This document shows positions 809-45,567 of a stretch of DNA of 64,000 nucleotides, piece by piece; positions within the stretch are counted from its first letter, which is position 1; every line of letters starts with the position of its first letter. Where the stretch lies: contig LNDV01000038.1 in the NCBI GenBank assembly GCA_001464765.1, forward strand, positions 128,311 to 192,310, read 5' to 3'. Below the pieces are notes generated by a model. The model was not told the origin of the DNA, searched no databases, and saw only the letters and a program-made list of their open reading frames with translations. This DNA is from Betaproteobacteria bacterium Ga0077526. Lineage in GTDB: Bacteria; Pseudomonadota; Gammaproteobacteria; Burkholderiales; Ga0077523. The translations under genes and the position numbers were made by a program.

Positions 809-1810
809 TCAGGCGGCCTGCCGCGCTTCGCGCTTGCGCGCATGGGCCAGCGCGGCCTCGCGGACCCACTCGCCGTCTTCCCACGCCTTGACCCGCTCGG
901 CGAGCCGTTCGCGGTTGCACGGCCCGTGACCGTTCACCACGTTCCAGAATTCGTCCCAGTCGATGGTGCCGAAATCGTGATGCCCGCGGGCTTCGTTCCA
1001 CTTCAACGCCGGGTCGGGGAGGCTCACGCCGAGCACGCGGGCCTGAGGCACGGTGGCGTCCACAAACTTCTGGCGCAGGTCGTCGTTGGAGATGCGCTTG
1101 ATGCCCCAATGCATGCTCTGGCCGCTGTTCGGCGAATCGCGATCGTGGGGGCCGAACATCATCAGCGACGGCCACCACCAGCGGTTCACGGCGTCCTGCA
1201 CCATGTCGCGCTGGGCCTGCGTGCCGCGCATCATCGCGAGCAGCAGGTCGTAGCCCTGGCGCTGGTGGAAGCTCTCCTCCTTGCAGATGCGGATCATCGC
1301 GCGGGCGTAGGGCCCGTAGGAGCAGCGGCACAGCGGGATCTGGTTCATGATCGCCGCGCCGTCCACGAGCCAGCCGATCACGCCGATGTCGGCCCAGGTG
1401 AGCGTCGGATAGTTGAAGATGGACGAGTACTTGGCCTTGCCAGAATGCAGCGCGTCGATGAGATCGTCGCGTGACACCCCGAGCGTCTCGGCGGCGGCGT
1501 AGAGGTACAGGCCGTGGCCGCCCTCGTCCTGCACCTTGGCAAGCAGGATTGCCTTGCGCTGCAGGGACGGCGCGCGCGTGATCCAGTTGCCCTCCGGCAG
1601 CATGCCCACGATCTCGGAATGTGCGTGCTGCGAGATCTGCCGCACGAGCGTCTTGCGGTAGGCCTCGGGCATCCAGTCCTTGGCCTCGATGAATTCGCCG
1701 CGATCCAGCCGATCGTCGAACTCCGTCTGGTAGTCGGCATTCGACGGGGCGGCGCCCGCCGCGGGCTCGTCGCCTTTCGGCTGGGGAATGTCCATCGCCT
1801 GGGTGTACAT
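809..1810 (-). CDS. paaA: phenylacetyl-CoA 1,2-epoxidase catalytic subunit A
   Basis: [30 protein letters not shown] and [11 protein letters not shown] di-iron motifs. Confidence 0.97.
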
Positions 1811-41702: not shown

Positions 41703-41743
41703 GCTTGACCACCTCGTTCGAAGGTCCGGACAATCCCGGATCC

Positions 41744-43549
41744 ATGTCTTCCTCCAACGATCCGCCTCCCGCCGGGCCGTCCGCCGGCACTGCGTGGTTC
41801 GACCTCGCGAACGCCCTCGGGCCGGAAGGGAGCCTTGCGGGCCTGTTTCGCCGCGCCCTTCCGCCTCTGCCCGCCCTGGCGGACGCACCAGCCGTGCTCG
41901 CGCGCGCCACGCTGTCGCACCCGGAACGCTATCAGTCACTCGCCGCCGACTACTACCGCCGTCAGATGGGGTTGTGGGAGTCGCTGCTGCAGCCCGCGCC
42001 GGCAGAACCAACCACCGCCGATGAAGCGACCTCCGGGACGCAGACCCTCGCCAGCCAGCCATGGTTCCGGTTCGTCCGCGACCAGCACGCGTTGTGGGTC
42101 GGATGGATGGGCGGCATGACCGCGCTGCTGGACGACGACAGCGCCGAGGCAAGACGAGTCCGCTTCGTCATGGAGCAATGGATCGAGGCCAGCAACCCCG
42201 ACAACTTCTTCGTGACGAATCCGGCGGCCGTGGCGCGAGCCCTGGACACGGAAGGCGAATCGGTGCGCCGCGGGCTGTCCAATCTGGCCCACGACATCGG
42301 GCTTGGCCGGATCACGATGAGCGACGGCGCAGCGTTTCAGGTCGGGGTCAACCTCGCCACCACGGAGGGGGCAGTGATCCACGAGTCCCCCATCGCGCAA
42401 CTCATCCGCTATCGGCCGACCACGCCCACCGTCCACAGCGTGCCGCTGCTGATCATTCCACCGTTCATCAACCGGTACTACGTCCTCGACCTCCAGCCGG
42501 ACAACTCGTTCGTGCGACATGCTCTGGCATCGGGATTCCAGGTGTTCATGGTCTCCTGGCGCAGCGCGTGCGCGGAGACGGCAGGAAGCACCTGGGCCGA
42601 CTATGTGCGGGACGGCGTGCTCTCGATGGCGCAAGTCGCGATGTCGCTGTGCCGCACATCGACTTTCCACCTGCTGGGCTATTGCGTGGGCGGCACGCTG
42701 GCCGCGACCGCAGCCTCGGCGCTGTCGGCGCGCCCCAAGTGCCCTCTCGCGTCATTGACGCTGCTCAACACGATGCTCGACTTCGCCGAGCCCGGCGAGA
42801 TCGGTGTCTACCTGGGGGACCCGCCGACGGGCGCGGCCGAGGGCGCGGAGGACATCTTCCCCGGGTCGCGCCTGGCGGCAGCCTTCGCGAGCCTGCGTGC
42901 CCGGGAACTCATCTGGCACTTCGTCACCCACAACTATCTGCTGGGTGAGACGCCGCCACCCCTCGACCTCCTCCACTGGAACGGAGACGCCGCCGACATC
43001 CCGGGCCCGCTGTTCCGCGAGTACCTCCGCGACATGTACCAGCACAATCGTCTGCGCGAGCCTGGCTCCCTCTCCCTCGACGGCACCGGAATCGACCTCG
43101 ACAGCATCCGCGTTCCGGCCTACGTGCTCGCGGCAAAGAACGACCATATCGTTCCCTGGCAGTCCGCACTGCGCAGTGCAGCCCTTCTGGGCGCCCAGCC
43201 GCGCTTCGCGCTCACGCAGGGCGGTCACATCGCGGGGGTCGTCAACCCTCCATCGGGACGCCGCGTGCGGGGGCACTGGGCGGCCGAAAACGGCCGCATT
43301 GCGCCCGATGCAGATCGGTGGTTTGATGGCGCGACCTACCGCGCGACGAGCTGGTGGCAGGACTGGACGCAATGGATCGAACCTCTCGGGGGTGCCATGA
43401 AGCCCGCCCCCGCGTCACCGGGGTCCGCCCGCCATCCGGTCGTCGAGGCAGCGCCCGGACGTTACGTCCTGGCGCCGGCCTGCGCCGCGGCGACATCGAA
43501 CAACGGTTCCGCTTTCCCAACCAAACCCGAGGAGAATGACAATGGCTAA
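41744..43549 (+). CDS. phaC: class I polyhydroxyalkanoate synthase
   Basis: PLLIIPPFINRYYVLDL, lipase box GYCVGG, DHIVPW, GHIAGV, APGRYV. Confidence 0.9.
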   Translation: MSSSNDPPPAGPSAGTAWFDLANALGPEGSLAGLFRRALPPLPALADAPAVLARATLSHPERYQSLAADYYRRQMGLWESLLQPAPAEPTTADEATSGTQTLASQPWFRFVRDQHALWVGWMGGMTALLDDDSAEARRVRFVMEQWIEASNPDNFFVTNPAAVARALDTEGESVRRGLSNLAHDIGLGRITMSDGAAFQVGVNLATTEGAVIHESPIAQLIRYRPTTPTVHSVPLLIIPPFINRYYVLDLQPDNSFVRHALASGFQVFMVSWRSACAETAGSTWADYVRDGVLSMAQVAMSLCRTSTFHLLGYCVGGTLAATAASALSARPKCPLASLTLLNTMLDFAEPGEIGVYLGDPPTGAAEGAEDIFPGSRLAAAFASLRARELIWHFVTHNYLLGETPPPLDLLHWNGDAADIPGPLFREYLRDMYQHNRLREPGSLSLDGTGIDLDSIRVPAYVLAAKNDHIVPWQSALRSAALLGAQPRFALTQGGHIAGVVNPPSGRRVRGHWAAENGRIAPDADRWFDGATYRATSWWQDWTQWIEPLGGAMKPAPASPGSARHPVVEAAPGRYVLAPACAAATSNNGSAFPTKPEENDNG

Positions 43550-44285
43550 ACGCATCGTGCTGGTCACCGGCGGCATGGGCGGCCTGGGTGAATCCATCTG
43601 CACCGGCATGGCCGATCAGGGGTACACCGTCGTGGCGACCGCGTCGCCGTCCAATAAGTCAGCGCCCGAGTGGATCGCCGCCATGAAGGAGAAAGGCTAC
43701 GACTTCCGCGTGGTGCCCTGCGACGTGGGTGACTACGATTCCTGCGCAGCAGCCGTCAAGGAAGTCACGGAGGCCGTCGGCCCGGTGGACGTACTGGTCA
43801 ACAACGCCGGCATCACGCGCGACATGACGTTCAAGAAGATGACGAAGGCCGACTGGGATGCCGTCATCCGCACCAACCTCGACAGCGTCTTCAACATGAC
43901 CAAGCAGGTCATGGACGGCATGGTCGACCGCGGATGGGGACGCGTCATCAACATCTCTTCGGTCAACGGTCAGAAGGGCGCCTTCGGCCAGACAAACTAC
44001 TCGGCGGCGAAGGCGGGCATGCACGGCTTCACCAAGGCACTCGCGCTGGAAGTCTCGAAGAAAGGCGTGACGGTAAACACGATCTCGCCCGGCTACATCG
44101 GCACGAAGATGGTGACCGCCATCCCCAAGGAGATCCTCGATTCCAAGATCCTGCCGCAGATTCCTGTGGGTCGCCTCGGGAAGCCGGAAGAAGTCGCAGG
44201 CCTCATCATCTATCTGGCATCGGACGAAGCGGCGTTCCTGACGGGCGCCAACATCTCGATCAACGGCGGTCAGCACATGCAGTAG
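43542..44285 (+). CDS. phaB: acetoacetyl-CoA reductase
   Basis: VTGGMGGLG, NNAGITRD, SSVNGQKGAFGQTNYSAAKAG; ATG 43536 is an alternative start. Confidence 0.95.
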   Translation: MAKRIVLVTGGMGGLGESICTGMADQGYTVVATASPSNKSAPEWIAAMKEKGYDFRVVPCDVGDYDSCAAAVKEVTEAVGPVDVLVNNAGITRDMTFKKMTKADWDAVIRTNLDSVFNMTKQVMDGMVDRGWGRVINISSVNGQKGAFGQTNYSAAKAGMHGFTKALALEVSKKGVTVNTISPGYIGTKMVTAIPKEILDSKILPQIPVGRLGKPEEVAGLIIYLASDEAAFLTGANISINGGQHMQ

Positions 44286-44340
44286 TTGCCGCCGGCATAT
44301 CCGGCCCCGGCAATTTTTGCCGGCATGGCGACGTCATGGC

Positions 44341-44371
44341 AAAAAAAACCCCGGCGTTTTGCGCCGGGGTT
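44341..44371 (-). terminator. rho-independent terminator of a minus-strand transcript
   Basis: Minus strand AACCCCGGCG-CAAAA-CGCCGGGG followed by T8; the U-tract is on the minus strand, opposite to phaB. Confidence 0.88.
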
Positions 44372-44545
44372 GAACCTTTATCTTGCGATAAAGGGGGAGG
44401 AGCCTTGATCGGACCGCGGCGCGATGTCATCGCCACCGCCGGCCATCCCCCGCGAAATCGCGGGGCCTGAAATTCCTGGTTGGTTCCGATCGGGAGATCG
44501 GTCGGGCAGTCTTGCTTCACTGCCCTGCGGTAACCCGCCGCACCG
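44341..44545 (-). ncRNA. putative sigma54-dependent structured small RNA with anti-SD CUCCUCC motif
   Basis: Bounded by a -24/-12 promoter (44556-44572) and a U8 terminator; six consecutive hairpins before the terminator, including a GCAA tetraloop on this strand; unpaired CUCCUCC at 44396-44402; the 5' end is inferred from promoter geometry. Confidence 0.72.
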
Positions 44546-44555
44546 TATTGCTATA

Positions 44556-44572
44556 AGCCAATTTTATGCCAG
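44556..44572 (-). promoter_or_regulatory. sigma54 (-24/-12) promoter
   Basis: Minus strand CTGGCATAAAATTGGCT: TGGCA with exact GG-N10-GC spacing. Confidence 0.75.
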
Positions 44573-44710
44573 ACCAAACTTGCTTCCTGTCCGAGGGTCC
44601 CGCAGCGCGTCTTTCCTTACGCTGTCTGGCCAAACTCACCGTTGGCCCCCAAACCTTCCCGCCGCTTTCCCGCCGACCGCGCTTTTGTTCAGCGCACTAT
44701 CCGAGCATGC

Positions 44711-44725
44711 GCACCGAGTCGGTGC
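44711..44725. promoter_or_regulatory. NtrC-type enhancer box
   Basis: GCACC-GAGTC-GGTGC fits GCACC-N5-GGTGC; ~140 bp upstream of the sigma54 element. Confidence 0.55.
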
Positions 44726-44783
44726 CCAAGCCCCTGAAAACTAGGGACTGGGGAGTGCAACTCGCCACCACATCGACGTCGCG

Positions 44784-44857
44784 TTGCTGCATTGCACAAG
44801 ATGAATACTAAACAGCGTTTACAGGAATCGTCAACAATTTTTTGCGCGCCGCATCAA
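44784..44857. promoter_or_regulatory. PhaR-type TGC-N3-GCA boxes in the phaR upstream region
   Basis: TTGCTGCATTGCACAA (44784-44799, near-palindrome containing TGC-ATT-GCA) and a weaker TTGCGCGCCGCATCAA (44842-44857). Confidence 0.55.
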
Positions 44858-44970
44858 ACATCCGTTACATTGTGCGCCCGCTGGCTTCCGCGCGACCTGC
44901 TTGGACGCCGCAACGGTGTGCACGTGCCACATTTCGATGCGCATTCCTCCTGCATCCGAGAGACCCTGCC

Positions 44971-45567
44971 ATGGCTGAAGAGCTGAGACTCATAAAGAAG
45001 TATCCGAACCGGCGGCTCTACGACACGGCAACCAGCAGCTACATCACGCTCGCCGACGTCAAGACTCTGGTGCTGGAGCAGGTGGTGTTCAAGGTACTCG
45101 ACGCCAAGTCCGGCGAAGACCTCACCCGTAGCATCCTGCTCCAGATCATTCTGGAAGAGGAAACCGCCGGGGCACCGATGTTCTCCAGCGACATGCTGTC
45201 CCAGATCATCCGGTTCTACGGCCACGCCATGCAGGGAATGATGGGGAACTACCTGGAGAAGAACATCCAGACCTTCCTGGAAATCCAGCGCAAGCTGCAG
45301 GAACAGGCCATGTCCAAGCTCGGCGACAACCCGGCCCTGGGGTCGGACGCCTGGACCCAGTTCGTGAAGATGCAAGGTCCTGCCGTACAAGGTCTCATGA
45401 GCAGCTATCTCGAGCAGAGCGCCAATACGTTCGTCGAGATGCAGCAGCAGTTGCAGCGTCAGGCACGCAGCATGTTCTCCGCCTTCCCGTTCCAGGGCTT
45501 CGGCGCCACCGGACCGGCCCCGGGCGATGATGCCCCGCCCGACGCCGGCGGTAAGAAGTCTTCCTGA
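44971..45567 (+). CDS. phaR: polyhydroxyalkanoate synthesis repressor PhaR
   Basis: [44 protein letters not shown]. Confidence 0.96.

Follow-up and report, generated by a model that had tools for sequence, protein, structure and literature searches.

The window analyzed here is a 64,000-nt stretch of the genome of the Betaproteobacteria bacterium Ga0077526 (GCA_001464765.1, contig LNDV01000038.1, positions 128,311 to 192,310), and in its polyhydroxyalkanoate (PHA) locus the 685-bp gap between phaB and phaR contains a small conserved element on the minus strand, composed of a CU-rich seed, a hairpin and a terminator (Table 1). The comparisons described below suggest, with a probability that we place at about 0.55, that this element is a PhaR-controlled base-pairing small RNA (sRNA) module of the CU-rich double-hairpin class that would act on ribosome-binding sites in trans, and that it forms the tail of the phasin (phaP) transcript or, in the window, of a transcript left without its coding sequence. 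In the proposed mechanism, polyhydroxybutyrate (PHB) granules would titrate PhaR off two predicted operator boxes and thereby permit synthesis of a primary transcript of ~460 nt, starting at ~44798 and ending at 44341; a sigma-54 promoter starting at ~44545 would, in this lineage, add a second input and yield an RNA of ~205 nt. The stable 3' module, possibly released by processing, would bind Hfq via the terminator and U-tail, and the CU seed would pair with GGAGG-type ribosome-binding sites of target mRNAs and lower their translation. The functional core, as judged from sequence, is only the 3' 62–70 nt of the minus strand. In kind it appears to belong with the anti-Shine-Dalgarno (anti-SD) sRNAs of the Hfq type derived from 3' untranslated regions (UTRs), within which the family itself is read as new.

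As the initial annotation had proposed, the gap contains a complete minus-strand non-coding unit with a Rho-independent terminator inside the pha locus, and the CUCCUCC, the GCAA hairpin and the terminator with its U8 tail are all present on that strand. The same holds for the absence of a credible open reading frame (ORF): none of the five gap ORFs of 40–106 amino acids scanned has a Pfam match, a sixth (44286-44408, plus strand, 40 amino acids) lying outside the scan, and the window interrupts a frame that runs open for 63 amino acids in L002, a relative with 88% identity. When the gap was compared by BLAST with 60 relatives, matches were obtained in 26 genomes, the window's own included, and beyond L002 only two blocks survive, namely 44338-44406, which comprises the CU stretch, hairpin and terminator, and 44781-44877 near phaR. 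The module is kept in 22 of 24 genomes of the same genus at 83–90% identity (gap query ~552-637, corresponding to window 44335-44420), and across 24 genus copies the CUCCUCC and helix 1 are invariant, with compensatory changes in the terminator. R1, a covariance model of the module, recovers it from 46 of 150 genomes sampled across the order, representing 31 of 96 genera. The synteny is strongly conserved, with phaR, phaB or both beside all 25 modules of a first set of loci, and phaR in 26 of the 27 loci L035-L061, the remaining one having a phaB-like gene and a phasin. The window's own genome contains one strong R1 match (87.3 bits), the next ones (30.3, 22.8 and 20.9 bits) being devoid of the CU seed. 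The genus-type pattern was found in 21 records, all of them uncultured metagenome-assembled genomes labelled Burkholderiales, Rhodocyclaceae, Betaproteobacteria or, in one case, Pseudomonadota; a plasmid collection gave no match to the module. In a class-wide sample of one genome per family R1 produced weak matches in 23 of 151 genomes (own genome included; best other 41 bits), and of the 11 best loci outside the order not one has a pha gene as a neighbor. The top matches there (L088 at ~1500-1565, L089 at ~1500-1560) are other units of CUCCUCC, hairpin and terminator situated away from pha genes, suggesting that the general architecture is wider than the pha-linked family.

The 70-nt fold of the module has a z-score of -5.36, and it is only in this form that the seed is wholly unpaired. 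Across 40 copies 98.6% of the cells are standard pairs, and changes on both sides occur in 10 of the 16 pairs, three of them in helix 1 and seven in the terminator. None of 500 shuffles reaches the observed values, and sliding the partner by 1–3 columns lowers the pairing to 39–58%. Covariation of the stems, by which the initial annotation had proposed that its hairpins be judged, is thus seen for the module under both the shuffle and the slide control. These changes also bear on the view that the element has no RNA function at all but works at the level of DNA, for instance as a bidirectional terminator or as a site for a protein between the two converging genes, with the other motifs arising by chance. 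Such an element could well have strand-symmetric hairpins and lie close to the phaB stop codon, from which the module is 7–161 nt away in the loci measured, with a 3-nt overlap in one locus. However, the minus (phasin) strand always carries the U-tract, and the phaB strand the A-tract, the compensatory changes keep the pairing, and the single-stranded CU seed, which a terminator leaves unexplained, is the most invariant part of all; we regard a purely DNA-level role as highly improbable.

The genomic context of the module in its relatives suggests where it came from. In 26 of 46 non-redundant loci the module is preceded on the same strand by a Phasin_2-type ORF, whose stop codon is 3–45 nt from the CU seed and exactly 3 nt from it in 12 loci, and Pfam confirms a phasin in all four ORFs tested. 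The remaining 20 loci, the window among them, are without a phasin gene. The initial annotation had described the unit as nested inside the pha locus; it did not arise there de novo, the module being the 3' end of a phasin gene in those 26 loci, where it has the position of a 3'UTR-derived sRNA (same strand, downstream of the stop codon, shared terminator), while the window has no upstream gene. Phasin status was read from ORFs and their translations in the genus loci and from tblastn with four phasin queries in the others, with the Pfam searches of four ORFs and blastn of phasin genes against the phasin-less spacers as further checks. Long ORFs in L013 and L023 that had been flagged automatically were judged not to be phasins, and the phasin ORFs of L010 and L045 are cut or short. 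In a quick PhaR plus PhaB tree of 41 loci (five of the 46 were left out, four with a PhaR match that was too short and L045 with none) the phasin-less loci occupy nine separate places; the change was presumably a loss of the phasin gene rather than a gain. A loss of this kind can be seen directly in the sister pair L050/L051, where L050 has retained the promoter and, of the phasin gene present in L051, the final ~44 nt, but not the ~410 nt between. The same pair provided the single match, L051 to L050, when 24 phasin genes were compared by blastn with the 20 phasin-less spacers. In L024 and L047 the phasin stop codon and the CU seed are 43–45 nt apart and enclose another terminator-like hairpin, which has a short U-run, so that in that family the module is set apart from the mRNA's own 3' end. 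Tandem CU modules follow the phasin gene in family f7, at L043:1501-1568 and 1623-1687 (minus strand, 54 nt apart) and at L047:1501-1565 and 1579-1646 (plus strand, 13 nt apart), the upstream copy having a weak U-tail; this arrangement recalls sibling sRNAs.

A location after the phasin stop codon could also be explained by an element that acts only in cis, ending or stabilizing the phaP mRNA or pairing with its own ribosome-binding site, the window copy then being a leftover terminator that guards the convergent phaB-phaR region and has no role in trans. A precedent for this is Staphylococcus aureus icaR, an mRNA whose 3' UTR pairs with its own 5' UTR in anti-SD fashion, and the search for trans targets given below yielded none. 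The single genomic copy is likewise in keeping with it, as against the 3–5 dispersed copies per genome reported for the Burkholderia double-hairpin sRNAs (PMC5688073). Nevertheless, the seed and helix 1 remain invariant in genus loci that lack both a phasin gene and a ribosome-binding site as pairing partner, these phasin-less loci still have the PhaR-boxed promoter, at times 99–211 nt away, the invariant CUCCUCCCCC is not needed by a bare terminator, and tandem copies exist. Restriction to cis thus appears unlikely, and given its conservation in loci without a phasin gene, the module probably serves as a small regulatory RNA that PhaR switches on.

The most widely kept control element, to go by its motifs, is a sigma-70-type promoter flanked by PhaR boxes and not the sigma-54 motif. 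This promoter is the most conserved block of the gap besides the module, and lies ~390 nt upstream of it, the intervening ~390 nt in the window being unconserved non-coding sequence. The PhaR consensus of Ralstonia eutropha is the palindromic YTKNTGCRNYGCANMAR (PMC12849132), and in a scan of the 64 kb allowing up to one mismatch it matched only box 2 (0 mismatches) and box 1 (1 mismatch), against a chance expectation of 0.42, with at least two matches in 6 of 100 shuffles. The PhaR-type boxes that the initial annotation had noticed further upstream are therefore upheld as two matches on either side of the sigma-70 promoter. Among the relatives, a PhaR box with at most one mismatch occurs in 41 of 46 loci, and in 37 of these 41 a TTGAC-like word is found within 50 nt upstream of it, mostly at 32–35 nt. 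With box 1 and box 2 around TTGACG-18-TAGTAT, all of them predicted sites, the window reproduces the layout of the PhaR-repressed phaP1 promoter of R. eutropha, in which one PhaR site (BS1) is placed upstream of the -35 element of a sigma-70 promoter and another around the start (PMC12849132); the window promoter, known by motif only, differs in that no phasin gene follows. The box sequence also resembles sites of Sinorhizobium meliloti reported to be bound by PhaR, including that of the mmgR promoter, box 2 being close to the SMa1961 site (PMC12542648). Box 1 may also serve the divergent phaR gene. The distance from PhaR box to module is 506–734 nt in phasin-bearing loci and 99–409 nt in phasin-less ones, the shortest being those of L060 (99 nt), L053 (124 nt) and L049 (190 nt), so that several phasin-less loci amount to compact, sRNA-sized, PhaR-boxed units. 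A free-standing phasin gene elsewhere in the same genome (G000:C27, ~86.4-86.7 kb, L085) displays the same promoter layout, TTGACA-17-TAGAAT followed by a PhaR-like box TTGCGATGCAGCA; its 3' end is an ordinary terminator without a CU seed.

Table 1. Coordinates of the module, the associated motifs and the neighboring genes in the 64,000-nt window
Feature	Position	Strand	Remarks
Conserved CU-rich double-hairpin module	44341-44402	-	seed, helix 1, terminator stem and U8 tail
CUCCUCC	44396-44402	-	extended to seed CUCCUCCCCC, 44393-44402
Helix 1 hairpin	44375-44394	-	CCUUUAUC-GCAA-GAUAAAGG
Terminator stem	44347-44371	-	
U8 tail	44341-44348	-	
Variable hairpin-rich stretch	44409-44545	-	between sigma-54 motif and module
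Sigma-54-type -24/-12 element	44556-44571	-	TGGCATAAAATTGGCT (TGGCAT-AAAAT-TGGCT); predicted start ~44545 from usual spacing
Perfect palindrome	44711-44725		GCACCGACTCGGTGC; 140-155 bp upstream of -24 element
PhaR box 2	44784-44800		CTTGTGCAATGCAGCAA on the minus strand; 17/17 match to YTKNTGCRNYGCANMAR; overlaps predicted start ~44798
Sigma-70-type promoter	44805-44834	-	TTGACG (44829-44834), 18 nt, TAGTAT (44805-44810); A-tract before
PhaR box 1	44841-44857		TTGATGCGGCGCGCAAA on the minus strand; 16/17 match; 6 nt upstream of -35
phaC	41705-43549		
phaB	43536-44285	+	acetoacetyl-CoA reductase type (adh_short); convergent with module
phaR	44971-45567	+	PHB_acc_N and PHB_acc; ATG at 44971; divergent from minus-strand unit

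Among known RNA families, no Rfam family matches the module at its cut-off, and the loci of 18 relatives gave no match at the gathering level. The best Rfam match is anti-hemB (RF02837; 33.8 bits, E = 1e-5, cut-off 49.5), with the first hairpin of the model deleted in the alignment. This proposed betaproteobacterial non-coding RNA, also known as ncS04, similarly places a hairpin and a terminator after a CUCCUCC stretch (PMC1950547), but differs in its genomic context and in the hairpin that is missing here. The Betaproteobacteria toxic sRNA family (RF02278) matches with 26.6 bits (E = 0.0087; cut-off 50), and in keeping with the kinship to CU-rich Burkholderia sRNAs that had been suggested at the outset, the module does resemble them, if below the cut-off. 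By architecture, the Burkholderia double-hairpin sRNAs (RF02278; ncS03, ncS05, ncS27, ncS62) appear to be its closest experimentally studied relatives: they are betaproteobacterial RNAs of ~57–92 nt with an unpaired 5' CU stretch, one hairpin, and a terminator hairpin with a U-tail, and ncS27 is reported to be processed from a longer form (PMC5688073, PMC4603805). Experiments on such RNAs connect their CU-rich stretches with ribosome-binding sites and show an effect of ncS27 on growth (PMC5688073). Of the two CU-rich stretches of RF02278 only the 5' one is present in the genus, together with the terminator, loop 1 being GCAA or GAAA, and in place of several dispersed copies there is one strong copy in the own genome. 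The module differs further in its GCAA loop 1, its fixed place in the pha locus, its PhaR boxes, and its position, mostly in a phasin 3'UTR.

The initial annotation had proposed the element as a betaproteobacterial analogue of MmgR (alpha-r8), an S. meliloti sRNA tied to PHB metabolism, whose nitrogen-responsive promoter contains a PhaR/AniA box (PMC12542648, PMC8401924) and which is activated by NtrC and repressed by AniA (PMC8401924). Given the PhaR boxes upstream of the module, recognized here by motif only, and the repression of MmgR by PhaR/AniA, the analogy holds for the regulatory logic. It does not extend to sequence or structure, as the 15 Rfam matches obtained at E up to 10 include neither MmgR nor suhB; furthermore, MmgR has a gene of its own that stands alone elsewhere on an alphaproteobacterial chromosome, and in the present case repression of phasins is unsupported by the pairing scan and a link to NtrC unsupported by conservation. 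The nearest precedent in print, by analogy, seems to be the 0381_3' RNA of Rhodobacter sphaeroides, a stable species of ~75–88 nt that Northern blots have revealed and that derives from the 3' end of a PhaP-like mRNA (PMC4179960). With 3'UTR-derived sRNAs the module has in common that it shares the terminator of an mRNA and begins immediately after the stop codon; the likeness is one of description only, and the present case differs in that the parental coding sequence is missing time and again, whereas module and promoter persist. In the literature searched, no sRNA at the phaB-phaR or phaP 3' position of betaproteobacteria was found, nor was a family with a fixed place in the pha locus, PhaR boxes and a parental gene that is repeatedly missing encountered in this literature or in Rfam, the supplementary sRNA tables of PMC5688073, PMC4603805 and PMC7011215 being outside the scope of the search.

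An alternative to the PhaR-controlled module, along the lines of the initial annotation, is a sigma-54/NtrC-dependent sRNA of ~205 nt (44545 to 44341), induced by nitrogen starvation, with the 5' hairpin array as a scaffold or precursor and with MmgR-like repression of phasin, phaC and phaB. Its -24/-12 element is present, and is probably a real promoter but a lineage-specific one. TGGCATAAAATTGGCT is the sole match to TGGCAY-N5-TKGCW on both strands of the window, with a chance expectation of 0.23; as 22 of 100 shuffles contain at least one match, it lies within chance and is not significant on its own. It has the right spacing, GG and GC being 10 nt apart, and agrees with TGGCAC-N5-TTGCW at 9 of the 11 positions specified. 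When GG and GC are made obligatory and at least nine matching positions out of 11 are demanded, such a motif is found 143–268 nt upstream of the module in 9 of the 20 phasin-less loci. That of L060 lies upstream of the sigma-70 promoter and is therefore not counted as a promoter of the module, which leaves eight correctly placed loci in three families: the genus contributes six, five of them from one subclade, and two other families contribute one each, that of L044 being a perfect TGGCAC-N5-TTGCA. On the opposite strand the motif occurs in none of the 46 loci, and rpoN is present in the genome. However, the motif is missing from 11 of the 20 phasin-less and 24 of the 26 phasin-bearing loci, the two exceptions being a TGGAAC variant inside the coding sequence, and it is hence not the most widely kept promoter. 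The palindrome GCACCGACTCGGTGC, which we take to be NtrC-like from the NtrC consensus, stands at a suitable distance from the -24 element, but is exact in the window only: it is weakened to GCAC-N7-GTGC in L002 and was not seen in the six other sigma-54 loci examined, and the eight loci have no shared activator site upstream of their motifs.

The 5' hairpin array of this alternative fares similarly. The minimum-energy fold of 44341-44545 reproduces all five of the hairpins that had been described (~44527-44538, 44504-44525, 44486-44501, 44448-44465 and 44421-44433), with a z-score of -4.74 for the 205 nt and of -2.76 for the 5' 137 nt (-3.0 for the 5' stretch in a separate control). Among 140 control windows drawn from these 64 kb, only 2 score -2.76 or lower, so that the stretch folds better than the other 138. 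The plus strand nevertheless folds about equally (-2.7), hence the array is not strand-specific. It can be aligned by BLAST with L002 only, in which three stem changes, all to G-U pairs, are too few to weigh, and tblastn and blastn detect no similarity between the array and phasin genes. We thus treat it as a spacer of uncertain meaning and doubt that it is functional. A sigma-N-like promoter reported for R. eutropha phaP3 (PMC12849132) and the nitrogen control of MmgR lend the sigma-54/NtrC-dependent sRNA some plausibility; with an unconserved palindrome and array, pha start regions that match the seed poorly and no MmgR match in Rfam, we consider it distinctly improbable.

Several observations weigh against the PhaR-controlled trans-acting module. 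In the 205-nt fold 44399-44403, a segment that includes part of the seed, pairs weakly over 4 bp with the far 5' end, a long-range contact which, speculatively, may mean that the seed is freed by processing. The sequence of helix 1 is very fixed, with 7 of 8 pairs invariant in the genus, and could thus represent a protein-binding or processing site in place of a scaffold for the seed. The alignment behind the pair counts was fitted to the model, which favors the structure, and the tree of PhaR plus PhaB, which bears on the polarity of the phasin change, is quick and midpoint-drawn. In the window gap no remnant of a phasin was detected, tblastn of 10 phasin proteins giving scattered, non-collinear matches with a best E of 0.09; consequently, loss of the gene in this lineage is deduced from the distribution of phasins and the conserved flanks. 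In the phasin-bearing loci the module could act only in cis. Neither counts of GGGAGGAG near start codons nor a ranking by duplex energy in the own genome gave a coherent target set. The ranking places the phaC, phaB, phaR and both phasin start regions at the weaker fractions 0.58–0.96, and the pairing energies therefore do not favor the phasin, phaC and phaB leaders that the initial annotation had named as targets; given that it was drawn from 6863 crude ORF starts, an unannotated and noisy gene set, the ranking neither strongly supports nor excludes pha targets. The sequencing data searched for signs of expression consist of assembled contigs of four runs, which are blind to strand, ends and level. 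Run X1 has one 259-nt contig over 44557-44815 with 4 differences and a depth of 2.6, and a 464-nt contig of run X4 matches 44338-44411 only and is unlike the window on both sides, indicating that it carries the module of a relative; runs X2 and X3 are probably DNA.

Three minor observations concern these searches. Several of the start regions that hold GGGAGGAG belong to ORFs whose N-termini, judged by eye, resemble periplasmic solute-binding proteins. Two short phasin-like stretches of the window, GTGCGCTGAACAA (44685-44697, compared with AAVNN codons) and ACCAGGAATTTCAGG (44466-44480, compared with TEFA codons), were rejected as too weak. The first coincides with a block of the form GCNGYGAACAA, ~120 nt downstream of the -10 hexamer, which is also seen in most phasin-less loci and encodes AAVNN or AAMNK in the phasin-bearing ones; it may be a relic of the gene or a further PhaR site comparable to those reported inside genes of R. 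eutropha, although without statistical support.

A more specific evolutionary scenario, which we advance only tentatively, is that of a riboregulator of PHB status born in the phasin 3'UTR: in many families of betaproteobacteria an anti-SD sRNA module would form the end of the phaP mRNA, release of PhaR by nascent granules would yield phasin and sRNA together, and the phasin-less loci, in at least nine places of the tree, would be free-standing PhaR-controlled sRNA genes, which in at least three families have a sigma-54 promoter. If this is true, the loci would form a natural series of a 3'UTR becoming an independent sRNA gene, and with the module the PhaR regulon of Betaproteobacteria would gain its first riboregulatory arm. 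In the reviews consulted, riboregulation of PHA synthesis is described only for MmgR, ArrF and Rsm/Crc, and one of them terms riboregulation in the betaproteobacterial model producer "undeciphered" (PMC8401924, PMC9049629). A PhaR-boxed anti-SD module in about one third of the sampled genera is thus a testable candidate for the missing PHA riboregulation, and could offer an engineering handle for PHB producers. The loci with and without a phasin, compact and extended, with and without the sigma-54 motif, likewise constitute a comparative series on the independence of 3'UTR-derived sRNAs. As regards annotation, Rfam 15 has no such family at curated thresholds, and R1 represents a usable model.

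The gene order of the window around the module is rluD, pgeF, phaC, phaB, the 685-bp gap, phaR, rimO and a DinG-type helicase. Between the stop codon of phaB and the U8 tract (44286-44340) there are three short palindromes, GCCGGCATATCCGGC, CCGGCAATTTTTGCCGG and CATGGCGACGTCATGGC, the plus strand being without a U-tail. The phaC and phaB genes overlap by 14 nt (43536-43549), with phaA absent in between, and the rimO ORF starts 41 nt ahead of the phaR stop codon (45527-45567).

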